A stretch of 64,000 nt of DNA from Rhizaria sp. SCN 62-66. Lineage: Eukaryota. A program made the position numbers and the translations under genes. Of this stretch, positions 47,564-64,000 are shown in pieces. A model generated the notes under the pieces. It was not told where the DNA came from. It saw nothing but the letters and a program-made list of their open reading frames with translations, and searched no databases. The stretch is taken from contig MEDY01000113.1 in assembly GCA_001724265.1 (NCBI GenBank), forward strand, positions 1-64,000, in the 5' to 3' direction. Each line of letters begins with the position of its first letter. Within the stretch, counting starts at the first letter, position 1.

Positions 47564-48119
47564 GGACTGTAGAGAAGCGGTGGGGAAGATAAGGCAAGGC
47601 GAGGGAAAGGAAAGTGCAAGGTTGTGGTAACGGAAGGGGAAAAGGTGAAAAATGTTGTCTCAAATGCACAGGAATCTGGCGACACTATGAAAGCTTAATA
47701 TAAATATATGAACTCGCCTGGCTGTTTTAAAATCTGGAAATCCGTCAAAGTTTGAAACGACAGATGCTACATCGACTTCTTTAGCTTTGAAATCTGCCTA
47801 CCATGCTTGGCGGACCGCCGATCGTTGCCGAGCCACAGCGGCCGCGATTCAAAACAAACGCTACTTTTCCAGTCGCCAAAACGTCTCATGATCGTCATAT
47901 AGCGATATGATTTGGATATGATATCTGCCTAGTTGTATAATATTTATAATCATAATTTTTATTTCTCAAATTTCTACAACTGTTCCTCTAGCGCTGTCTA
48001 TAGCCCTGACTGCAAGAACCAGTTACTCACCTCTCGCTGCCCTGTCTTTTCACCCATGTAGCCCCACCAACTCTAGACCTTTCCTTTTCTCGCCGCGCCG
48101 CCGCTTATTAACGAGAGCA

Positions 48120-51100
48120 ATGTCCACCGCGGCGCCCGGTCCGCTGCACGGGCCTCAGTCTCCGCGCTCCCCGTTCGCGTCCGCGCCACCATACACAACA
48201 ACGTCGAGCAGTTCTTCAGCCTCTGCGTCGTCGTCGTCGTCGCCGTCATCAGCGTCGCTGTCAGCCGCGTCCCTGGCCGCGACGCCCGTGCTGTCCTCCT
48301 CACTGCTGCCGTCGCTGCCGCGCGCGCCCGCGGACGCCCCCACCGTGCTGCGCGCCGTGGCCCTACTGGTCAACCAGGCGCGCCTCTGCCGCGCGGCGGG
48401 CGCGCTCGAGGATGCGCTCGCGCTGCTGCACGACGCCAACGCGCTCGCGCCGCACGACCCCACGCTGCTGCTGCAGCTGGGCGCGTTGTACACGGACCTG
48501 GGCGAGCCCGCGGTCGCGGCGACGCTACTGCGGCGCTTTCTGTCCGCGGCCGTGACGGCCAGCGTGCCGCCGCTCGACATCATCCTGTCGCCGCGGTCGC
48601 AAGCGCTCGCGCTGCTGCGCGCGCAGTCGCTCAACAACAGCACTAACACCGACAGCAGCAGCATTAGTAGCAGCAGCAGCAGCGCTAGCAGCAATGCGGC
48701 CGCACAGACTGCTTTCCTGCCGCTTCTGCCGCCGCCGCGGTCGCGCCGCTTCGCGAAGCTGTCTCTCTCGGCGCGCTTCCCCGCGCTGCTCGCGCTGTCG
48801 GAGCTGGCCCGCGCCGCGACGGCCGCCGGGGACGCTGTGCTCGCTGCGCAGGCGCAGACGGCGCTGCTGTTCGCGATGCGGACGCAGCGCGACCACGACA
48901 CTTACACCAGTCTAAGTGCCCTCTCCAAGAACAAGACCGGCAAGACCCGCAACGCGAGCATCATCGCCGCGCGCAAAAGCGTCTCTGCGAGTGCGGGCGC
49001 CGGCGCGAGCGCGAGTTTATCCGAGGCTGAGGAGGAGGCGGCGGAGGTCGAGGAGTGGGGCAGCGGCTGGCCCCGCGACTGGGACAGCGACACCGCGGTC
49101 GAACACTGGCTGGGCCCGATTGCGTAGTCAAACGACGACAACGACGACAACAAAAGCTTGAACGCGAATGGGATTGACGCGCTGTTTAGTCTGCCTGCTG
49201 TGACAGTCTCTGCCACTGGCACAGAAACGCTTTTTAACGACAAAAATAACAACGCCAACAACAACAGCAACAGCAACAGCAGCAACATTCTCGTCGAGCC
49301 CGCGTCGCTGGTCGGCCCCGTCCCGACACTGTCCTTGTCGCGCGCGCGGCAGGCGACGTGTCTGCGCAGCATGGCGCGGCGGCTGCGCGCTATGGGCTGG
49401 CCGCGCCAGGCGCTGCAGTGCGCCGAGCGCGTCCTCGTCCTGACCGCTGCCAACAACAGTAATACGAACAGCAGCCACGGCAGCAGTGCGGGCAATAGCG
49501 CCGTCAGCAGCAGCAGCAACCTGGTCACCGCTGACACTGACACCGCGAGCGACAGCCAACAACAACAACAACAACAGCAACAGCAGCAGCAGTCTGGCCG
49601 CGTCCCACCGGCCTCGGCGCTGGCTGCGGAGGCGTCGGACCTTCTCCTCGCGGGCTCCCTTGCGTTCGAGCTCGACCTGGTGGAGAAGGCGGCGCTGTAC
49701 GCGCGCGCCGTGCTGGAGCTAGGCACCAGCAGCGCCGCTAACGCCGCCGCGGCCGCCGCTGCGCTCGGCGCGAACAACATCAACAACAGCGGCAATAGTA
49801 GTGCTACCAATGCGAATAACGCTGGCGCTAGCGCTGCTGATGGCGGTGAGGCTGAGGTCGGAGCCATTCTCACCGCTGCTCTTCGCTCCCCCACAAACAA
49901 CACCAATACTAACAACGCTACCAGTAGCGGCAGCGGCAGTGGCAGTGCGAGTGCAGTGGAGAGTGCTAACGCTCTGTGGGACGCGCAGCAGCTCGCGCGC
50001 CTGCTCCTGGCCTCCGTCTCGCTCGCCCTGGGCTCCGCCGCGGGTGCCGCAGACGCCACCGCGCTGCTCGACTTGGTTCTAGCGGCCCCGGAGCGCAACC
50101 TGCCCGCAGTGAGCGCGACCGCTTTTTACACGCTGAGCAGCGTGTTGTTGCTGCAGGGCAAGGCGCTGCCCGCCGCGGGCGCTCTGCGCGCGTGCGTGGC
50201 CGCGCAGACCGCCGTGCTCAGGCAGCACCAGCGCCGTCGCAGGGCGCGGGCGCGCGCGCGCGCCGCGGCGGCCGCCGCCAACGCTGGCTACGTCAGCGCG
50301 CTAAGGTACGACAAAGCACGATAACCTTTCTTTATACGAGCGCATATACGCTTAAACTACACATATAATTTGCTATTCGATTTAAATAATTTGCAATTTT
50401 GTGATTTAATTTAGTTTCAAGTTTATATTCTCACATTTCACGCCTATCTCTTTCATACTGTGCTCTTTGTCCCATTTTGTCGTCACAGCAACGACAGCGC
50501 GATGGCGGTGGTGTCCGTGGGTGCGGGCGAGGCTGCCGCGGCCGCCGCGGCCCCGCGCGGGCCCGACGGGCGCGTGGTGCCGGGGCTGTGGGTGCGCGAG
50601 GACGAGGCCGCCGCCACGGCAGCGCTCGACGCCGCGCTTTACGGCAACAGCAGCGGCAGCGGCAATGGCGGTAAGACCAATGGTGACCGCGACCGTGACG
50701 AGGAGGACGACAACGAGGCCGGGGCGGGCGCGGAGGCTGAGGCCGAGGGCTGGGACGGCAACGTGGCAGCCGCGCTCTGGGGTTTCACTGACAGCAGCAG
50801 CAGCGACGACGGCGACGACGACGGCGACCACGCAGACGACTCCGACGGTGGCGACGCCGGCAACGGCAAAGACGGCCACGGCAGCGCGGCCGACAAGAAG
50901 GGCCGCAAACGCCATTGGCAGCAGGCCTCCTCCTCGCAGCTCCGCCAGCAGCAGCAGCCGGGGAAGCCGGGGAAGCAGCCGCGCCGCCACCCGCGCCGCC
51001 ACCCGCTGTGGTGGCTACTGCACGCGCCCGATAGCGCGGGCGGCGCGGCCTGTCTGCCGTTGATCCCGCGCGAGCTCTCGCTCAGGGACGTCGCCGCCGC

Positions 51101-54100
51101 GGCGGCCAAGCTCGCGCTCACGCCCACGCCCGCGCCCGCGGTCGCGCCGCTGCTCGCCGCAGCTCACTTCGGTGGCAGCGGCGCCGACAACGCCCAGGCT
51201 GCGGCAGGCTCGCACACCAGCCCCAGCACCAACAGCGGCTCGATCCCGGCAGGCTCCGGCTTCAGCGCCGTTTCCGGCTCTGGTGCCGGCTCTGGCCCAG
51301 GTCCGGGCCGCACGACGGCGCCGCCACTGATCCCATCGCTCCACCTGCCGGCCCGGCTGAGCGCAGCGTTCGCGCCGCACACGGCGACGGCGCATACGGT
51401 CGCGCTTCTGGTGCCCTACTACACGGAGCTGCTGCTGCGCTACGGGCCCGACGAGCGCGTCCTGTGGTACCGCGCCAACGCGCACCGCGCCGCGGGCGCG
51501 CTGTTGGCGTGTTGCAAGGACCTGGATCGCATGCACGACCTCAACCCGCGCTTCCTCGCCGAGTACCTAGCCAAGCCCTGCCCCTTAGACGCGCTCGACG
51601 GGAAGAAGCTATGCTGGGTCCAGTGGCGCCTCTTCGAGCCGCTGCACCAGATCGCGCCCACCAACATGCCCTGCGTGCAGACCGGCTTGCTGCTCGCGCT
51701 GCCGCCCCCGGGGCCCGAGGCCGCGGCGGGGCTGGCCGCGCTCGGTTCGGGCGCGGGCAGTGACGGCGGCGGCAGCGGCTCTGGAAGTACTGGCGGCGGC
51801 TCCCGGTCTAGTGCCGGCGCCGGCTCGAGCGCGAGCGCGAGTGGCGGCGCTAGCGTGGCGATGGCCGGCCTCGGCCTGCCCTCGGTTACCCCCACGGCGC
51901 CGGCCTCGCTGACGTCGCTGCCCGTTGCGCTGCCCATGCTCCTAGAGCGCCTGCTGCTGTACTACCGCCTGACCTCGGACCCCGCGGCGGCGCTGCCCAG
52001 TGAAGACCCCGCCCACGGCCACCTGTGCGCCGTCGACCTGCTCCGACAGCTTGCGGCGGCCCCGGCCTCGGCCGCCGCGCCCAGCCTGATCGAGGCGCTC
52101 ATGTCGCCCTACGCGCAGGAGCGCCAGGCGCAGCGGGCCGGACTGGGTCTCGGCGGAGCGGCGGGGTTCGCGCCGGCCGCGGCGGCCGCGGCGGCGGCGG
52201 CGGCCACCGCGGCCGCGACTGCTGCTGCGGTGAGCAGCAACATCAACAACAGCAGCAGCGGTGATGCAAACGCGCATGACGGCAACGGTACACTGAGTGG
52301 AAACAACAAGACAAGTCCGATTGGCAGCAATATCGGCGACAGCGCGACGCCCGACGCTGCCGCCGCCGCGAGCGCCGCCGCCGCCGAGGCCGCGGCCGCC
52401 GCCGCCGCCGGGTCCGCCGCGGACGTGAGCGCGTTGCTATCGTCGCTGGACCAGGGCACGGCGTCGCTCACCACGCCGTCCGCTCTGACCGCCGCCGACG
52501 TCAGCGCGCAGGTCTCGGCACTGCTGACCGATTACCTGGCCCTGCTGCTGCCGCGCACCGGCGGCGCCGCGCGCGGGCGTCTCACGCTCGCGCTGCTGCG
52601 GCTGCGCGGCTGGGACCTGCCCACGCTGCGCCACGACTGCCTCGAGGCGCTGCGCGGGATGAGCCAGGCCGCGGCCGCACTCCTCACGGGGCCCGAGGCC
52701 GCGGCGTACGCAGACGTGTTCCCATTTGCGGGCACCGCCAACCGGCCCCCCGGCACCGCGGCGGCCGGCGGCCAGAGGGCGGGACTCGCGGTGGACACGG
52801 CGGTGCTCTCGGTCCGCCTCGGCGACCCCATCCTGACCCGCGCGCTGGCGCTGACGGGCGATTTGTGCCTGGTCGACGTGCCCATCGCGACCTCGGCGCT
52901 CTCGTTTCCGCCCACCGGCGCCGCGCACGCCGCCGCGATGCCGACCTCCTCCTCCTCGGCCGCCGCGATCGGCAGCGACGCCGCGGGCGCTGACGGCAGC
53001 AACGGCAACGGAAACAGCGCCGGTGTCGGTGTGGACGGCACCGCACTGCCGTTCAGCGTGCCCGCCGTGGACGACAACGTGGTGGCGATGCCGCGCCAGT
53101 TCGTGGCGTGGACGCTGCGCCACGAGGCCGCCGCGTTCCTGTCGCTGCTCGCGCAGGGCTACCTCTTGCAGGCGCAGAACGACAAGTGCGTGCTGCTGCT
53201 GCACCGCGCGCTCAGCCTCGAGCCCTCGTGCGCGCTCGCTCACACCGTGCTGCTGGGCTTCCACACGCGCTTCTCACCGCTGGCGGCCACGGCGGCGCAG
53301 CTCGCGCTGCTGCTGCAGACGCACCCGCTCTGGGTACCCGGTGCGGACCTCCACTGCCAGCCGTTGCTGCACTCGCCGCGCTCCTTCCTGCGGCCCGACG
53401 GCGCCAAAACGCTCTCGGCGCTGTTTCTGCGCGGCGAAACCAACCTGGCCGCGCTGCCGCTGATTACGGGCTCGGCCGCGGGCACCACAACGCTGGCGCT
53501 GGCCAACGCGCAGCTCATGGCGCGCGCCACGGGCGCCGTCGCCGCGGGCGCCGCCACGGGCCCCGGCGCCGCGGCCGCGCTGGGCCTCACGCTCGACGCG
53601 GTGCCCAGCTTCGCGCGCGCGGTCAGGCTCGTGCGCTCGCACGCGCAGCCCTTTTACCGCCGGCCCATGCTCATTCTGCGCTCGAGCAATAGCTCGGGCA
53701 GTCATAGCAGCAGCAGCAGCAGCAGCAGCAGCTCTAGTCATGGCGTCATTGGCGACGAGAGCAAGGATGTCGCCGACCGCGAGCTAGCGCAAAGCGACAC
53801 CGGCAACGGTGATGATTATGACGACTACGACGTGGTGGTGTTTGACGCAGACGTGTCGCGCCCACCGCCGCGCCCGCTGCCGCCGACCGCGGTTTGGGTC
53901 GCCGCCGCGCTCGCCGAGCCCGCGCCCGCCGCGCTGCCTCTGCCTTCGTCCCCGTCGCCGACCACGACCGCGGCCGCGGCGGCAACTGCGACTACCGCGC
54001 TGTCGACGCGGCTTGGCGCGGGCCTGCGCATCCGGCGCCGCCCGACGCCCGCACAGCACGCCGCCGCCGCGCTGCAGTCCGTGCTGAGCGGCCCGGCGTG

Positions 54101-57100
54101 GCGCGCGCTGCTGACCCAGCGCACGGCCGTGTTCGCGTTTCTCGCGCACCCGATCGACGCGGCCGCCACGGCCACCGCGCTGCCGGGGCTAGTGCCCGTG
54201 CTTGCGCGTGCCATCCCGCCGCCGCCGCGCTCCGCAGCCACGGCCAAGTCTGCCGCCGCCAGGGCGATGGCCGCGGGGGCGTCGGCGTCGGCGTCCGCTG
54301 CGAACCCAGGCTCGTACGCGTACGGCGTGTCAGGGTCGAGGCCCAGCACCGCGCAGGCCGCCGCGCGCGCCGCAGCCGCCGCAGCCGCGGGCGCCTCAGC
54401 GACCACCACGGCCGCCGCCGCAGCCGCAGCCGCCGCAGCCTCGGCGCCGGCGGGCGTGAGCGACGCGGAGCTGCTCGAGGACCTGGGCCTGGCGCCCGCA
54501 CCGCCGCGGTCCGCCGCCGCCTCGGCCGCGCTGTCCCGACCCGACTACGCGTACTCTGACCCGCAGTCGTTCCTGCTTGCGCACCCAGCGCGCATCACGC
54601 CCGCAGCGCGCGCGCTCTCGCTCAACCCGCAGCTGCAGCCTGCCTTCCAGCGCGCCTTGCAGCGCAACCGCCTTGCACGCGCGATCGGGGCCGCGCGCGC
54701 GCCCGGCGCCGTTGCCTCTGCGGCATCCACGGCGACGGGCGCCGTGGATGGCCCGGACGCCGGCGCCGGCGGGCTGTCGGGTTCGGAGGCGCTTGCGGTG
54801 GCGCTGGCGGACCGGTACTTCAGCGCCGTGCACGCCGCGGTCGCCGACGCGGGGCCCCGGGCCGCGGCGGCCACGGCGGCGGCGCGCGCGGTTGCCCGGG
54901 CCCGGCGCGTCGACACTAGCGCGCCTGTCGCCGCTGCCGACATCAACGCCAACAACAGTACTGCAGCTGGGAGCGAAAACGCATCCAACGGCAGTGTCGC
55001 GCGCACGCGCACGCGCCGCGCTGCCGGCAACGACGACAGCACACCGGCCGACCCTGCGACTGCACGCGGCAAGTCCCAGCCGCCGGCGCGGTCGCCAAGC
55101 CCCGGCCGCCGCAACCGCGCCCGCGGCGCCGGCGCCCCTAACAACAACAGCGCCGTGTCTGCTGCCGCGCTGGCCGAGTACACGGCGTCCCCGTGCGCGG
55201 GCGCCGTGGCGTCGCCGGGGTGGTCCGCGCTGACGCTCTACGTCGAGGGCGCGCGCCGGCTGGCCGCGGGCGACGTGCGCGGCGCCGCGCTGGCCTGGGC
55301 CGCGGCGCTGGCGCTGCAGCCGCAGTTCTGCCCCGTGCTGACCGAGGCGCTGCTCGTGGTTGAGGGCGCGCGCACGGGCGCGCGCGTGCGCGACATTCGC
55401 GGCCCGCGGCCCAACTCGCGCGTCAGCAGCGCCGTGGCCAGCGCGGCGGCCATCACCGCGGCGCAGGCAGCCTCGGCGGCGTCGGTGCGACCGCCGCAGC
55501 ACACGCTGCTCATGACCATCTTTGCGCCCACGCAGGCGCCGCTGGTCGTGGCCTCGCTGTTTGCGCGCGCGCAGTTCTACGCCGACGCGGGCGGCTCCGA
55601 GGACGCCGCCTTCGCGGACCTCTCGCTACTCACTTCGCTGGCCTCGCTGTCAGACGCGCTGTGGCGCCGCGCGCTACTGCTGCTGCGCCGCGGGCGCGCG
55701 CGCGCTGCGATCGGCGACCTCTCGGCCGCGGTGGCAATGGTGCGACAAGACAAGGAGCTGACGCTGCCGTCGGGGCAGCGCGTGCGCACGCAGAGCGACT
55801 ATCACGTGCTGCAGATGCTGCAGCGCAAGCTCGAGGCTTACCTCCTGCTGCGCGCGATGCTGCGCTTTAAGCTGCTCGACTACGCGGCCGCCGAGGCCGA
55901 CGCCGGCGAGGTCATTGCTTCGGCGCGCGCCTTCATCCCCGTCGCCGCCGCGGCCGCCACGCTCTTCGGCGGCGGCACCGCGCTGGGCTCCCCCGCTGCG
56001 GGCGCTGCGGCGGCGGCCGCGGCGTCGCCCGCGCTGCCCGCCGCGCACCGACTGCGCTCGCTGTGCAGCTCGCACCTGGACGACTGGGAGAGCGCGCTGG
56101 AGGACCTGCAGGCATATCTGCGGCTGCAGCCCTACGATCTGGGCGCCAAGCTGCGCCTCGTGCACATGCTCTCGCTCACGCGCAGCTTCACCGCCGCGCA
56201 CAACACACTCAAGCAGCTCCTCGCCGCCGCGCCGCGCTCGCCCGCGCTGCTCTTTGCGCGCGGCCTGACTTTCTACCGCCAGCAGCGGTGGCAGCGCGCG
56301 CAGGCGTGCTTCGTGTCGTGCCTTGCCACCGCGCCCGGATTCGTCGAGGCGCGCGCGCGGCTCGCCGAGTGCCTCGAGCGCCAGGGCCAGCTGCGCCGCG
56401 CCGCTGCCGTGTACAAGCAGATCATCGCCGCCGCCGCGCCAGACACGCTGCCTGGCATGCACCGTGCGCTCGCGCGCGTGCTCATCGGGCTCGCGCAGCT
56501 GTCCTACGCGGCAATGTCGGCGCGCTCGGCGGCCGCTGCGACGGTCGCGGTCGCCGCGGCCGGCAGCAGCGGCGGCGTCGGCGGCAGCAACGCTGCTGGC
56601 GAGTTTGGCGGCAGCAGCAGCAGCGGTAGCAGTAGCAGCAGTACTCTCGGCGCGAACGCGCGTCCCAGCGACCGCCCTTGTGGCGACGCCGCCGCTGAGG
56701 CCAGCGTCGAGGCCGAGCTGGTCTCGGGCGTCCGCACGCACCTGCTGCTCGCCGTTTCCGCGCTCAAGATCGCCGTCGTCGCCGACGCCAACGACGCTGA
56801 GGCGCTGTTCTTGCTGTCCTACGCCACCGTCTTCCTTTCCGGCTCCGCCACCGCGGCCGCCGACGCCGCGGCGCGGCCGTGGCTGACCCGCGCAGTCGCT
56901 CTCGCGCCCGCGCACGTGTCGGCGCGCGTGCTGCTGGCCGTCGTGCTGACCCGCGCCGGCGACCGCGCGCGCGCCGCCGTGGAGCTGCAGGGCGCGTTGC
57001 AGCGCGACCCCGATCACCCCACAGCGCTGCTGCTGCGCGGGTTTCTGCACTTCCTCGACGGCGACGCCGCTCGCGCGCTGGCGCGGTACACGCGCGTGCT

Positions 57101-60100
57101 AGAGCTGCCCGTCGCCGTGCCCGTCGCGCCCTCCGCCGCCGCGGCAAGGCGGCCGCAGCGCGCCGGCGGTGGCGCAGGGGTGTCGTCCTCTTCTGCTGCT
57201 GCTTCCGCCGGTGCAGACTGGGCGGACGACGACGACGACACGATCTCGATGCCACAGCACCTTGCGCCCTCGCGCACCGTGCTCTCCGCCTTTGCGCTCA
57301 ACGGCACCGGTGGCAGCGGCGCTGGTGGTGGCGCTGGCTCCGACGCCGCCGCCCTTGAGGCCGCAGCCGACGCCGCCGCAGCCGACGGCGACGCGGGCTC
57401 ACTGGCACGCGACCCGGTGCAGCTGGCGCTCGCGCTCGCGGCCGGCGTGCGCGCGGGCGTGCTGGCCCACGGGCCCGCGCAGGCCACGCGCGTGGGCCTG
57501 TCGCAGGCTCTGCGCGCGCTGGCCTACGCCAACCGCGGCCTTGCGCTGCTGACGCTGGGGCAGCACACGCACGCGCTCGTCTCGCTCGAAAACGCCATCG
57601 AGCTCGCCGCGGGGCTCGCCCCCGGCGGCGTCGGCGCCGTGCGCTCGCTCGGCTCGGCCGCCGCGGGCGGCGTTGACCCCGCGGCCGCGGCCATCTCGGC
57701 CGGCAAGCTCTTCCCGGGCGCTGCGGCTGCGATCACGGGGCCCGCAGCGGCCGCGGGTGCGCTTGCTCGATTGTTTAGGGCGGAACTGCACCGCCGCATG
57801 GGACTTGGAGAAGAAGTACGTTCATGTCAACAATTATTAAACGAAACGTTCTAAGTATTAAAACAAAGTAACTCCTCCTTTTTATGAAAATAACTAACTT
57901 TTATATCAAACTGCCTCTTCTTGACTTGTTTTCACTCTTTCAGGCTGTCGCGGACTACCGCACGGCGATCCTGCTGCTGCGCCGCGAGGCCTCTCTGGCC
58001 GAGAGCGAAGTCATGCGCGTGCGCGCCGAGACCGTGCGCACGCTCGCCGCGGGCGCGCCGGCGCTGCTGGCGCACAACCGCGGCGCGGCCGTCGTGCGCA
58101 GCGTGCTCGCTGCGGACGAGTACGCGCGCGGCGCCGCCGTCACCAGCAACGGCGCCGACGACGCACCTGCCGGCAACAACGGCGGCACCAGCGCGACCGC
58201 GCAGGGCGAGCAGTGGTGGTGGGCGCTGCCGCTGGCGCGCGCGCCCGCCGCGCTGTCCGCACGCGCGGCGGTCGAGGGCGCGCCCACCTCGGCCGTGCGC
58301 CGCGCGCAGGCCATGCTGCTGGGGCTTCTCACCGCGGCAGGGCTGCCGCGCGCCGCCGCGCCCGCCGCCGGGGCCGAGCGCGACCTGCTGCTGCTGCACC
58401 ACCGCAACCAGGCCTCCGGTCTACACTCACAGTCACATTCACAGTCATCTGTGCAACAGCAGCAGCGGTTTGGCGCCCCGCTGGCGCAGGCCGACGGTGC
58501 GCTGCCCTTCACCACCGCGGCCAGCGGCAGCGCGCAGTCCTCGGTTGCCGCGGCCGCAGCAGCCGCCGCGGCCGCCGCGGGCTCCACAGGCGCGCTGTCC
58601 CTGGCCTCGCCAGTGACATCGCCGACCAACTCCGCCGGCGCAGGTAGCGCGGCCGCGGGCACGGGCGCCGGTGCGCGGGCCCGCGTTGGCGCGCTGTCGC
58701 CGGCGGGCGCGCTGGTGCAGCGCGTGGTCGCGGCTGCGTGCGCGGCGCAGGAGCTGGCGCACCTCTGCGACCCCGCCGCGCAGCCGCCCTCGGTAGTCTT
58801 GGCGCAGTCACGCGCGTCGCTGCACCTCGTACTCGCGGGCGCCGACGCCGCCGCGCCTGCTCCGGGCGCCGAGAGCGAGCAGCAGAGGCAGAGGCCGTAC
58901 AGCGGCGCGCGGCCCGCGGCGGCCAAGACGCCCTTGGCGGCGCGGCCGGAGCAGCAGAAAAGCAAGAAGACCACAGGTGGCGGCTGGGCGCCGTGGAGCG
59001 GCGTGGACGCCGTGGCCGCGGCCGCCGCAGCCGCCGCCGCCGCGGCCGAGGCGCTGGGCTCGCTATCGACGCACCTGAGCAGCGCGGCCAAGGCTCTGCC
59101 ACCCGCGATGGCGTGGCTGGCCCCGGCGCTCTCGATGACCCCGCGCGCCGCCGCCGCGCTCGTCGCCGTGGCCGCTCTGCCGCAGCTCGCGGGGGAGCTC
59201 GCCGCCGCGGGCTCGGCCGCTGCGATGACCGCGCTCGCCGGCAACAGCCACAGCAGCAGCGGGAACGACGCGGCGGGCTCGGCGCCCGGACTGCACCGCA
59301 TGTTGTCGCCGCTGTCGCCGCACGCGGGCCCCCGCGCGGCGCCCTCGCTGTCCGCGGGCTCCGTCGGCGACAGCGCGTCCGCGGGCAATGGCACCGGCAA
59401 CGGCAGCGGCGGCGGCAGCGGCGGCGCGGGCCCCGTGACGCCGCTGCTGGGCTCGCTGGTGTCGCCCTCCAAGGCCGGCGCGCGCAGGCTCGCGCAGGTG
59501 ACCGCGGCTGCCGACGCGCCCTCCGCCCAGTCGCAGTCTCAGCTGCAGTCGCAGGGACAGGGACAGAACGGAGGCGGCGTGACCGCGGGCCAGGCACTGA
59601 CGCTGGCGCTGGGCCAGACGCCGTCGTCGTTTCCGTCGCTCTCGGCGCTGTCGCTGGCGCTGACGCCGCTGCCGCACGCGCAGTCGCCGCTGACGCCGGC
59701 CTGGGTGGCGCTGTCCCCGGGCTTCTGGGACCCCGCCGCAGTGACGGATCCCGCGCTGCCCGCGCCGCGCTCCTTCATCGCCGGACTCTCCGGCGTGTCG
59801 GGCAACGACGTCGCGCTGTTCCACAACGCGCTGGGCGTGCTGCTCTTCTACACGCGCCGCGCGCAGGCGCTTGCCTCCGCCACGGCCTTCTCGCGCACCG
59901 CGCTCACCGTCTGGAAGGGCGGCCCCGCGCCCCCCGTAGCGGCGAACGTGAACACGGCCATCGCGGCTGCGGCCGCGGTCTCACCCGCCGCTGCCGCTGC
60001 CGCCGCCGCCGCGGCGACCGCCGCCGCCGCGTCCGCCGCGGTGGCCGCGTCGCTGCGGCAGTCGTCCGCAGCGTGGGTCTCCGACGACCGACTGACGGTG

Positions 60101-63100
60101 CGCGAGCTGCAGCGGCGGCACCACGCCGCGGTGCCTTACACGCGCGAGGCCGCGACGCAGGCCGCGATGGCCGTACGCGCCTCGGACCTGGCCGAGCGTG
60201 AGCGCGCGCACTCGCAGTCGCTGAGCAGCGGCGGCGGCGCTGCAGGCAGCTCCAACTCGGACGAGACGCTTGCGTGCTTCTCCGCCGCGCGCTCGCTCCT
60301 CAACGCCGGGCTGCTGCTGCTCGAGGGCGGGAAGCTGCTCGAGGCGCTGCACCAGTTCGAGCTCGCGGTTGCCGACGCCGCCAGCGCGCTCGGCACCGCC
60401 GTCGTGACGGCGACGGGCAGCGGCTACACGCGCGGCAGCGGCCGCGCCGCGGCCGGCCACGGCAACAGCGGCGGCAGCGGCGGCGGCGGCGACCACCACT
60501 CGCTGGTGGGCATGACGGCGCAGACCGCGGCGGCCGTCAACGCCGCCGCCGTCATGGCGTCCACGTCAGCGGCCGCCGCGCTGCCGCACCCGGCCAGCGC
60601 GAGCAGCAACAGCAACAGCAGCGCCAACTCCGTCGCGGATACGCCTCTGGGCGGCGGGTACAGACCCGTCAACAGCAACAACAACAACGGCAGCGGCAAC
60701 GGCGGCGCTGGCGGCGCGGCGTGGGGCGCCCCCACGACGGCGGCCGCGCTCCCGGGCTCTGCGGCCGCGTCACCAGCGGCCGCGCGCACGCTGCTGCTGC
60801 GCGCGCGCAACAACCTCGCTGTGGTGCTCGAGCGGCTTAACTTTGTGCCCGAGGCGTTGCGCGAGCTGACGGCCGCGGCGGCGCTGGAGCCGTACCCGGG
60901 CGTGGCGTCGTTCAACCTGGCCACGATGGAGGCGCGCGCGGGCCGGCACTATGACGCCGTGCTGCTGTACACGCGGCTCATTGAGCGGTGCGACGAGCTT
61001 TGCATCCGGCCCTGCGACGACATGGGCAACGTCAACGCGCTCAAGGGGCGCAGGCGCACGCTCTACAGCAACAGCAGCAGCAACAGCAACAGCACCACGC
61101 CTGTTGCGACCGCGGCAGCCGCCGCGACGGCGGGCGCTCCCGCTTGCACCTCACTGGTGGCCGCCTCTGCCGCGACGAATGCTGCTGCAGCCGGCGCAGC
61201 GTCGTCGCCGCAGCTGCTGTCACTGCTGGCGCCCGCGCCGTGGGACTCGCTGTCGCAGGAGCCCGTCGGGGTCGGCGAGGGCGACGACGCATCCTCCTCC
61301 GCGCTGCCACCCGACGCCGCCGCCGACGCCGCTGCCGCCGCTGCGGGCGCACTGTGCTTCGACGACGATGCGCAGGAGCGCGCGGCACTGACGGAGCTGC
61401 TGCCGCTGGCGGTGCTGAACCGTGCCGTGTGCTACCAGCTGCTGTACGAGCTGGCCGTCGCTGCGCGCGGGTTCGAGGAGGCGCTGGAGCTGGCGCCCGG
61501 GTTCACACTCGCGGTGTACAACCGCGCGCACCTGCACCTGCGCCGCGGCGACGTCGCGGCCGCGGTGCAGGACGTGCTGCGAGCGCTCAAGGAGCTCGTG
61601 CCCGCGCAGGACATCGCGCGCGCGGCGACTGCGACGCGCTCCGCTCTCGCCGCGCCCGCACTCACGAACGCGGCCTCCGGTGGCAGCGCAACGAGCGCTG
61701 TCACCACCAAGACGGGGTTCCGCGCTGGCAGCGGCGTGTCTGCTGCGGCGGCCAACGTGCTCTCGGCACTACCCGCGCCCGTGTCGTCCGCGCTGCACGC
61801 CTTCCTGGTCGCGACGCCGGGTGACGCGATGGGCCGCGAGCGCGCGCTGCGGGCGCTGGGCGACGTGATCACGGCGTCGCGCGCCACCATTGCGCGTGCG
61901 CCCACGGTGCCCGCGCCGCGGTACCTGCTCGAGCTGTACCAGTACTGCCAGCGCTGCCAGTGGGCGCTCGCAGTCGCGTGCAAGGACCTCTCCGCCGCGC
62001 TGCAGGTGCTGCCGCTGTACAACGTCGTGCTGCACAGCGACAGCACCAAGTACAACGAGCAGCGGCTCCGTGTGCGGGCGCGCGCGCTTGCTCGCGCGGG
62101 CTGCGGCGCGCGGCAGCGCTCCATCGCGGCTGCCGCCGCTTCCTCCGCTGACGCCGCAAACAGTCATAATACTGCCGGTGGTGCTGAGAGCGGAGAGGGC
62201 AACGCCGTTGGCAGCGGCGGCGACGACTGCGACGGGGACGACGACGGCGAGAGCGCTGAGCAGCTCAACGCCGGGTGGTACACGCACTACCTCACCGAGG
62301 CGACGCTCGTCCGCGCGCCCGCGGGCGGCGGCGCGGCCGAGGCAGGTCCCAATGTCGCCGGCCGGGAGCCCCCCGCGGCGCTGGCGGCGCGCGTGCGGCG
62401 GCTGCACGCGCTGCAGCAGCGGCGCGAGCGCAACGTCAACGCGGCCGCGCGCGCCGCACAGCTGGAGACGTCGCGGCGCTTCTACGCGTCGATGTTCTAC
62501 GCGCTGCTGCACCGCAACGCGCGCGGCGAGTCCACCACGGCCACCAGCGCCGCCGCGCAGTCTGCCGCGGCCACGGCCGCCGCGCGCGTTGCGGCCGTCA
62601 CCGGCGCGAGCAACGATAGCACGGGCGCGGCGGCGGGCACGGCGTCGTCCGCGCTGCCGTCGCACCTGCCGCCGCCGCTGACGCCGCCAGACGCGTTCGA
62701 CCCGTTCCGGCTCGCCGACCTCTCCTCGGCCGAGCTGCGCGCGGTTGAGGAGGTGCTGCTGCAGCTGGGCGTGGACCCCGCGCTGCCCGACGGCGCCAAC
62801 ACCGCCGCCGCGCTCACCGCGCACCTCACCGCGACGTACTGCGACGACACTGCCGACAGCGCCGGTGCCGGCGACGGTGAGACCGACACTGAGGCCGAGG
62901 CCGGCGTGCGCGCGCACCGCTTCCTCTTCACCGGCGGCCTCACCGCGATCGAGTGGGCCCCCGAGGCGGCCGCCGTCGCCGACTGCCTGCTCGCTGCGCT
63001 GTCTGCGCAGGTCGCGGGCCGCTACGCGCGCGCGCTGCGGGCGCTCGAGCGCGCACAGGCGCACTTCCCGCTTGTGCGTCGCCTGCCGCCGGTGCTCGGC

Positions 63101-64000
63101 GCGCTGAGCTGGCGCGTGGAGACGCTCGTGGCGCTGTGGCGCCAGGGGCTACTGGTGGCCGCGGGGCGCTTCGACGACGCCGCCGACGCCGTGCTGTCGC
63201 GCGTGTCAATCCTCAGCACGTCGTCGATCGCGCAGGCGCTGCGCGAGGTCGAGGAGGAAGCCGAGGTGCGGCGCCGCGTGCGCGAGGGCGCGAGCGCCGA
63301 CGCCGCTATCGAGGCCTCTGGCAAGGCCAGCTTCGCCGCGCTCGACACGGCGTCTGCGCGCGCGCTGCAGACGAGTAGCGAGGTCCGCAGCGTGCTGCTG
63401 AACGCGCGCGCCGCGGCGCAGGCCGGCGCGTCAGGGGCTGCGCTTATGGCGGGCGGCTTGGGCGCTGGCTCTGCCGCTGGTGCGGGTGGAGCCGGCACCG
63501 GCAGCGCTCAGATGCGCACGCGCGGGCTCGGCATGATTGACGTCACCGCGTCTCTGTCTTCGACGCGCGGCGCCAGTGCTGCGGGTTCTCACGGCACCGG
63601 CGCGGCTGGGAGCGACGCCATGTCCCCGCGCGAGGTGGACCTGGCGCTCTCTGTCGAGGGACTCAAAGAGCGACTGCGGCAGAAGCGGCAGCGCCCGAGT
63701 CGTCTCGCGGCCATGACGGGCCGGCGCCGCGTGTTCGACTCGTTTTTGCTCAACATCGCCGGAAACATCCACCAAGCGCGCGGCCACGCCGACGATGCAT
63801 TCCGGTGCTACCAGCTCGCCATCGGGCTCGACCCGTCGAGCATCTACCCCGTGATGAACCGCGCCGTCCTGGCGTCGGCGCAGAGCAGGTACGTGCTTGC
63901 GCTGCGCCACTACCAAACGCTGTTAGAGCTCTACACGCAGTACTACATCAAGCAACACAAGATCGCGGTCGCCAAGCTCCCCGCTGCCGCGAACGCTGCA
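48120..64000 (+). CDS. Giant TPR-repeat protein (>5,100 codons), 3'-truncated, containing one in-frame TAG at 49125-49127
   Basis: Exons 48120-50305, 50489-57815 and 57944->64000; introns GTACGA...CACAG (phase 2) and GTACGT...TTCAG (phase 0). Many TPR-like units (ALALLHDANALAPHDPTLLLQLGALY, LFARGLTFYRQQRWQRAQACF, AYANRGLALLTLGQ, AVYNRAHLHLRRGD, NIAGNIHQARGHADDAFRCYQLAIGLDP) separated by Ala/Ser/Asn-rich inserts. Whether 48120-49127 is translated with the rest depends on how the TAG is handled. Confidence 0.78.

Follow-up and report, generated by a model that had tools for sequence, protein, structure and literature searches.

The window analysed here, a stretch of 64,000 nucleotides from contig C113 of a 34.9-Mb assembly of 714 contigs, carries a giant TPR gene that runs from position 48120 to beyond position 64000, and the spliced model of this gene comprises 5,190 codons with a single stop, a TAG at codon 336 (Table 1). 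The first-pass annotation had singled out this triplet as a lone in-frame TAG that might be a sense codon, and its context was as described, the TAG joining the stop-to-stop frames 47922-49127 and 49128-50324. TPR-like helices had also been placed on both sides of it; upstream, the Pfam TPR match fell short of the curated cut-off (E 1.6e-4), none was obtained in 49128-50321, and the clear Pfam TPRs of the gene lie in exons 2 and 3, of which exon 2 returned generic TPR clusters only from the ESM Atlas.

Table 1. Positions in the window of the giant TPR gene and its TAG, and contigs with coding TAG in kinase domains
Feature	Position	Strand	Remarks
TAG, putative sense codon	49125..49127	+	codon 336; one other sample has CAG
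Exon 1 of giant TPR gene, ATG at 48120, holds the TAG	48120..50305	+	gene model predicted from DNA only
Intron 1, GTACG..CAG	50306..50488	+	183 nt, GC ~0.33, frame-consistent
Exon 2, Ala-rich	50489..57815	+	Pfam TPR matches
Intron 2, GTACG..CAG	57816..57943	+	128 nt, GC ~0.29
Exon 3	57944..64000	+	TPR matches; continues past window end
Asn/Asp-rich low-complexity coding insert	49128..49290	+	directly 3' of the TAG; GC 0.47
Candidate 66-nt intron of the first-pass annotation	49124..49189	+	judged unlikely; donor GTAGTC, GC 0.48
Kinase domains with coding TAG	C16, C161, C53, C148, C49		

The Asn/Asp-rich coding insert and the lack of an AT-rich spacer behind the TAG, both noted in the first-pass annotation, hold with a qualification: GC falls from 0.73 to 0.47 at this point but stays well above that of the introns of the gene. 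The first in-frame ATG 3' of the TAG is at 49371. Two separate genes meeting at the TAG were considered and rejected, because the spacer is not AT-rich like the introns and a CAG allele (see below) joins the two frames. Removal of the TAG with the 66-nt candidate intron appears unlikely: the GC content of the candidate contrasts with 0.29-0.33 in the two introns of the gene, its donor differs from GTACG, which leads the donor-like motifs with 103 of 522 candidates, the introns of eRF1 measure 134-292 nt, and the CAG allele would change its GT to GC.

Four of 14 listed sequencing runs (X3-X6) were compared, and the site was covered by X3 and X4. A contig of run X3, from a study other than the likely source, spans 47900-49241 with zero differences and has the TAG; as this independent run agrees, the TAG is no private assembly error, which speaks against the base-call error that had been left plausible. 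Run X4, from a third study, gave an 857-base contig (depth 4.2) whose sole difference is T>C at 49125, resulting in CAG; this contig represents DNA, because the intron at 50306 is left unspliced. The base was thus reproduced in one run and replaced in another at low depth, and from this one low-depth contig the site appears to be polymorphic TAG/CAG. Taken alone, the site is weak evidence for a sense UAG, because the insert is unconserved and the CAG allele exists. Four runs from three studies contain at least half of the sampled words, with bioreactor or wastewater as labels where given.

The organism is a eukaryote with introns, axonemal-type dyneins and mitochondrial-type genes. By protein, its closest relative is 84% (eRF1) and 88% (HSP90) identical. 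A candidate 18S sequence is highly divergent with long insertions and lies on an AT-rich contig, its link to the rest of the assembly being unproven. Ubiquitin monomers begin with MSMQIF, and zero polyubiquitin junctions, where an insertion is described for rhizarians (PMC6133090), were assembled in the loci read; a sainouroid placement is a guess.

In-frame TAG codons occur in other genes of the assembly. Internal stops were present in 14 of 142 kinase-domain matches, and all 14 were read: five contain a coding TAG (Table 1), four a TAG that serves as splice acceptor, and five TAA or TGA, all in introns. Further coding TAGs were located in SUV3, ASCC3, USP5 and one ubiquitin-domain gene, and the SUV3 protein truncated at its TAG is encoded on seven contigs from three public sources. 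All TAA and TGA codons examined within domain matches lay in introns, the inspection leaving out six multi-stop matches (SNF2, myosin and UCH) and one kinesin match with two TGA. Searches for kinesin, DEAD, SNF2, SMC, myosin and ABC domains, and for AAA, WD40, class Ic synthetase and HSP90 domains, gave no further coding TAG inside a match; lone TAGs in the added searches were splice acceptors or intronic, and none of the TAGs found occupies an invariant column. With a codon model requiring coding signal on both sides, applied to the window and to 804 kb of loci retrieved around domains and tRNAs, hence non-random, TAG, TAA and TGA were recovered 16, 3 and 0 times at a score >5, and 29, 9 and 8 times at a score >0; an earlier codon model had given 14, 1 and 0. 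The three TAA codons with coding signal on both flanks lie outside domains. The C148 kinase gene has an additional TAA in a Gln-rich stretch and is possibly decaying, and locus L057 looks duplicated and divergent and may likewise be decaying.

The gene for eRF1 itself contains such a codon. It is located on the minus strand of contig C63, encodes 441 residues, ends with TAA and has an in-frame TAG at codon 111, and matches to the eRF1_1 profile were limited to this single eRF1 gene and pelota. The TAG codon aligns without gaps to eRF1 of the PDB, opposite human E107, and over 1,626 bases, TAG included, the sequence recurs without a difference in a JGI metagenome contig (L176). Inspection of the eRF1 motifs, which the first-pass annotation had proposed, gave a divided result: the GTS and TASNIKS regions are changed (T32S; G57S and T58K), and NIKS, YxCxxxF, E55, L69 and S70 are intact. 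T32S and G57S were absent from all 117 homologues and from the metagenome loci compared (0 of 72 and 0 of 73); T58K occurred in one of the 117, the closest relative, which shares T58K without T32S or G57S. T32 is described as bonding the G of UAG and as being Gly in Iotanema (PMC5304391), and T32A as lethal in yeast (PMC4381064); T32S is a conservative substitution. From these substitutions we infer that eRF1 has probably lost affinity for UAG.

A search for a tRNA with a CUA anticodon, also proposed in the first-pass annotation, identified one nuclear, single-copy gene (G000:C84:76008-76080, minus strand, ARAGORN score 117.8), hereafter tRNA-CUA. The anticodon-loop pattern for CUA matched 48 times, against 93 in a reversed control; ARAGORN was run on 30 of the 48 loci and on tRNA clusters, and most of the other 18 were judged by eye. 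The gene is followed 3' by a T-run, a long Ala-rich gene ends about 500 bases away, and intron-type genes lie on both sides. Among 42 distinct tRNA sequences taken from the genome, the closest to tRNA-CUA is tRNA-Glu(CUC) (47 of 73 positions identical, against 36 and 32 for the two tRNA-Gln). With both tRNA-Glu, tRNA-CUA has the U1-A72 pair and the first five acceptor bases in common, and the G1-C72/U73 present in both native tRNA-Gln is missing. It also carries U11-A24, U13-G22 and a 4-base variable loop, which are given as Glu determinants of E. coli (PMC9976931). The E. coli (n=5) and annotated phage matches were tRNA-Glu, among the matches listed, and of 128 tRNAs with the same 20-base D-arm, 124 were tRNA-Glu, with up to 55 of 73 positions identical; the 128 come from 130 loci of prokaryotes and viruses selected by this motif, so the set is biased. 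A human tRNA-Glu engineered to carry CUA is reported to insert ~95% Glu, with readthrough >20-fold above the native body (PMC12204705). A tRNA with a UUA anticodon was not found by a pattern search covering short-arm, intron-less tRNAs only, the six matches being one tRNA-Lys(UUU) and five non-tRNA sequences. A Leu-type long arm, as in a Leu tRNA for UAG, is not present in tRNA-CUA.

At predicted gene ends, TAG is nearly absent. Among 118 candidate ends, defined by composition and not by transcripts, TAA, TGA and TAG numbered 63, 48 and 7, and under a stricter score (n=68) 43, 24 and 1, with a non-coding background of 7566:6729:3759 for TAA:TGA:TAG. The sole strict-filter TAG end proved to lie in coding sequence, ten codons upstream of an intron, and the other six, from the loose filter, are weak. 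These counts suggest that TAG seldom ends genes, against the normal use as terminator that the first-pass annotation had considered as counter-evidence; some of the six weak ends may still be genuine. The gene-end count alone proves nothing, because Euthynema, a fornicate with the standard code, also rarely ends genes with UAG (4.12% of 170 genes; PMC9161772). Sense TAG is rare as well: in ten dynein heavy chain loci (~42,100 codons in stop-free stretches) zero coding TAG was detected, and zero stops of any kind were present in 147 WD40, 21 AAA, 19 ABC and 9 SMC matches. The rate of sense TAG is roughly estimated to be of the order of 1-2 per 10,000 codons, all such rates being drawn from loci selected for their domains or tRNAs. 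At these rates a 441-codon gene would hold a TAG with a chance of ~3-10%, and that eRF1 itself carries UAG is notable. With sense TAG so rare, residual termination is possible.

The directly observed codons, tRNA gene, eRF1 substitutions and stop usage, taken together, are best read as a genome in which UAG is a very rare sense codon, much as the first-pass annotation had suggested for the TPR gene, and UAG is very probably read as an amino acid. The standard code, under which the TAG of the window would be a nonsense allele, a base error or part of the 66-nt intron and the other TAGs errors or pseudogenes, is very improbable and largely refuted: it can draw on the CAG allele and on the possibly decaying C148 kinase and L057 genes, but it is opposed by the identical TAG in an independent run, in a separate eRF1 assembly and on seven SUV3 contigs, by a TAG within the gap-free alignment of the only eRF1 gene, by the high-scoring tRNA-CUA and by the strong excess of TAG over TAA and TGA in coding context.

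The amino acid was approached through alignment columns, profile scores and flanking residues. The eRF1 column opposite the TAG contains E in 106, D in 10 and V in one of 117 homologues (E 77 and K 1 in a second set of 78); the closest relative has Val at this site, which indicates that the column is relaxed in this lineage. At the SUV3 site the column is D87, S11, E11 and Q8 (n=147), with D in the closest relatives, and at the ASCC3 site Brr2 structures have E in a variable column (E in 4 of 120, mostly plant, homologues). The C49 kinase has D at the corresponding position of both paralogues. The PDB yielded either no structure or nothing informative for USP5, for a Prp5-like helicase and for a CaMK-like kinase. 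A tree-aware likelihood over the eRF1, SUV3 and ASCC3 sites, calculated on a fixed tree with 35, 35 and 25 homologues picked from 117, 148 and 120, gave 0.80 for E and 0.15 for D, with K, Q and L 5.4, 5.8 and 7.9 log units below E. Pfam scores summed by hand over nine TAG sites (E 916.6, K 916.1, Q 915.3, S 911.3, Y 906.3, L 905.1, W 899.8) fail to separate E, K and Q, place Leu 11.5 bits below Glu and disfavour Ser less strongly than Leu. The two residues that the first-pass annotation had cited as precedents, Leu and Gln, are probably both incorrect: Leu is disfavoured at the nine Pfam and three orthologue sites and by the Glu-type tRNA, and Gln is a live rival.

The reading that we prefer, to which a probability of roughly 0.65 is assigned, is a nuclear code in which UAG specifies Glu and UAA and UGA are kept as stops. 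A UAG codon would enter the A site, where tRNA-CUA, presumably expressed and charged with Glu, would outcompete eRF1; eRF1 altered in its GTS and TASNIKS regions would recognise UAG less well, and UAA and UGA would terminate normally. Because tRNA-CUA has a single gene and eRF1 may retain some activity on UAG, decoding of this codon would probably be inefficient and the codon costly, and we propose that TAG is kept very rare because of this cost. The codon would then be found mostly in weakly constrained positions, often arising from CAG by C>T, for instance at the site in the window.

Reading of UAG as Gln, as in Iotanema, is unlikely. The Glu-derived tRNA-CUA would in that case be charged by GlnRS through U35, as amber anticodons can attract this enzyme in E. 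coli (PMC9976931), and TAG and CAG would be synonymous. All three direct counterparts of TAG are indeed CAG or Gln, namely the allele in the window and two sites of L057. When flanking residues were modelled at 29 TAG sites compiled by hand, with two doubtful sites and every acceptor excluded, E minus Q came to -6.2 bits, where true GAG codons score +9.1 +/- 5.7 and true CAG codons -1.7 +/- 5.9; the score resembles that of Gln codons and is 2.7 standard deviations from GAG, and four poly-Gln sites supply ~-15 of it. However, tRNA-CUA has a Glu-type body without the acceptor end of both native tRNA-Gln, the eRF1 and SUV3 columns are acidic, with Q 5.8 log units below E in the likelihood test, and D stands at the corresponding position in the paralogues of the C49 kinase. 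Moreover, C>T from CAG would be the commonest route to TAG whatever its meaning, and the context of a TAG would reflect its mutational origin, easily reached from CAG and tolerated in inserts under either meaning. In this small sample, sites derived from Gln and acidic sites are about equally frequent, which seems to fit Glu better than Gln, because CAG-derived sites should dominate under Gln.

Decidedly unlikely is an ambiguous state in which UAG still terminates a few per cent of genes and tRNA-CUA provides partial readthrough, the in-frame TAGs being tolerated leaky sites and the TAG of eRF1 perhaps regulatory. The extreme rarity of TAG, seen in the dynein codons and WD40 matches, agrees with such a state, as do the single tRNA gene, the conservative nature of T32S with intact NIKS and YxCxxxF, and TAG at 7 of 118 candidate ends, six of them unexplained as coding. 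Readthrough would nevertheless have to be substantial, because the single eRF1 gene, SUV3 and ASCC3 require full-length products; the strict filter leaves zero TAG terminators, and fully reassigned codons are also reported to be rare in highly expressed genes (PMC12153298).

A tentative and rather doubtful further reading is that the code is in mid-change, with a tRNA-Glu(CUA) of bacterial-type D-arm set against a partly desensitised eRF1 and with the UAG at eRF1 codon 111 as a feedback sensor. If eRF1 partly reads UAG, this codon would act as a negative-feedback sensor, more release factor leading to truncation of its own synthesis at codon 111. In bacteria, prfB has a stop-type codon in the mRNA of the release factor itself, and the feedback logic is comparable; if true, the arrangement would give eukaryotes an equivalent of the RF2 autoregulation of bacteria, setting the balance of UAG between stop and Glu genome-wide. 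The autoregulation described for plant eRF1-1 (PMC5397192) follows a similar logic, in that a stop codon of the release-factor mRNA could sense termination activity, but there the circuit uses the terminal stop and NMD, whereas here the UAG is internal and its feedback hypothetical.

Reassignment of UAG alone to Leu, Gln or Ser, and of UAG to Glu jointly with a reassigned UAA, is already known (PMC5304391, PMC10553269, PMC11687900, PMC12153298). In Iotanema spirale UAG is Gln and UAA and UGA are stops (PMC5304391, PMC9161772); as in the present genome, UAG alone is reassigned, both other stops are kept and T32 of the eRF1 GTS motif is changed. Unlike Iotanema, the organism studied here has a Glu-type tRNA, G57S and T58K in addition to T32S, numerous introns, genes of mitochondrial type (SUV3, for example), and a TAG that is far rarer than in Iotanema, where it makes up ~8% of Gln codons. 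UAG is also uncoupled from UAA in the rhizarian exLh, with UAG=Leu (PMC5304391), in phyllopharyngean ciliates, with Leu or Gln, and in Scotinosphaera, with UAG=Ser and UAA as stop (PMC11687900), and CUA tRNA genes are described for two ciliate MAGs. In exLh and those ciliates, however, UAG is widespread in conserved genes, from which it is almost absent here, and the conserved Leu columns that mark the UAG=Leu codes of exLh and ciliates have no counterpart among the present sites.

UAG is Glu in Oligohymenophorea sp. PL0344, with UAA=Lys (PMC10553269), and in Blastocrithidia and peritrich ciliates, with UAR=Glu (PMC12153298, PMC11687900). As here, the CUA tRNAs of PL0344 are most similar to tRNA-Glu, but PL0344 has UAA as a sense codon and ten CUA tRNA genes, whereas UAA is the commonest stop in the present genome, which has one CUA gene and in which no UUA tRNA was found. 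Blastocrithidia and the peritrichs likewise have tRNA-Glu(CUA), and Blastocrithidia avoids its reassigned codons in highly expressed genes; both reassign UAA, and Blastocrithidia also UGA, whereas UAA remains a stop here and S70 of eRF1 is unchanged, set against those codes. AT pressure is the cause proposed for the change in Blastocrithidia; the coding DNA of the present genome, by contrast, is GC-rich (0.65-0.78). UAG=Glu with both UAA and UGA as stops was not found in the literature searched, which included few subscription papers, and a prior report is possible.

If Glu is correct, this would be a nuclear code variant in a GC-rich genome, where models based on AT pressure do not apply; if the residue is Gln, a known code would have arisen independently once more. 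The combination of a single tRNA gene, three substitutions in eRF1 and very few recoded codons may mark an early stage of reassignment, and with a relative that has T58K without T32S or G57S the ambiguous-intermediate and codon-capture models become testable against each other. The organism would also provide a naturally occurring amber tRNA for Glu, and its eRF1 may be a variant able to tell UAG from UAA. Standard gene calling splits the genes concerned, and the halves of SUV3 are already in public protein sets.

In the eRF1 of a relative (the metagenome protein P0006), which was 84% identical to that of the organism, T58K was common to both proteins, T32 and G57 were retained, and Val was found at the column where the organism has a TAG. 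These two eRF1 proteins provide a natural comparison for the order in which the eRF1 changes arose. Autoregulation of eRF1 through this in-frame TAG is possible.

Features and their coordinates in the assembly (G000)
Feature	Locus	Contig	Strand	Remark
eRF1 in-frame TAG	L001:1594-1596	C63:103463-103465	minus	codon 111
CUA tRNA	L029:1489-1561	C84:76008-76080	minus	
18S rRNA gene	L004:1501-5945	C706		span 4.4 kb
TAA in Gln-rich stretch	L012:3049-3051	C148	minus	coding signal on either side
Ubiquitin-domain ORF	L057:1-2085	C681	plus	internally duplicated

The CUA tRNA, in which C9 was present, was identical to many bacterial tRNA-Glu over 20 bases of the D-arm, and its identity to bacterial tRNA-Glu (up to 55/73) exceeded that to the organism's own tRNA-Glu (47/73). 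In contrast to this bacterial-like D-arm, the acceptor end was U1-A72. A bacterial or mitochondrial origin of the tRNA may be considered, as a lead only.

Two TAGs were located in the ubiquitin-domain ORF, with Gln at the matching positions of the duplicate and of ubiquitins; its C-terminal part may resemble a self-cleaving chaperone domain. In several separate genes for ubiquitin monomers (L055, L056, L058, and L059), an extra Met-Ser stood at the start. Two of these genes ended with a short tail, HPQ or HSQ, and frameshifts or internal deletions were present in some copies.

The tabulated TAA was downstream of a kinase domain bearing a TAG, and may represent a recent nonsense allele, a decaying gene or the true end.

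The 18S rRNA gene was interrupted by four long insertions resembling group I introns, and an ORF-like stretch was seen in the first of them. TTTGGG repeats (L264) were present upstream of the gene.

Separately, a 3-base in-frame insertion was observed at window position 49414, in exon 1 of the giant TPR gene, in sequencing run X4 (one contig, depth 2.8).
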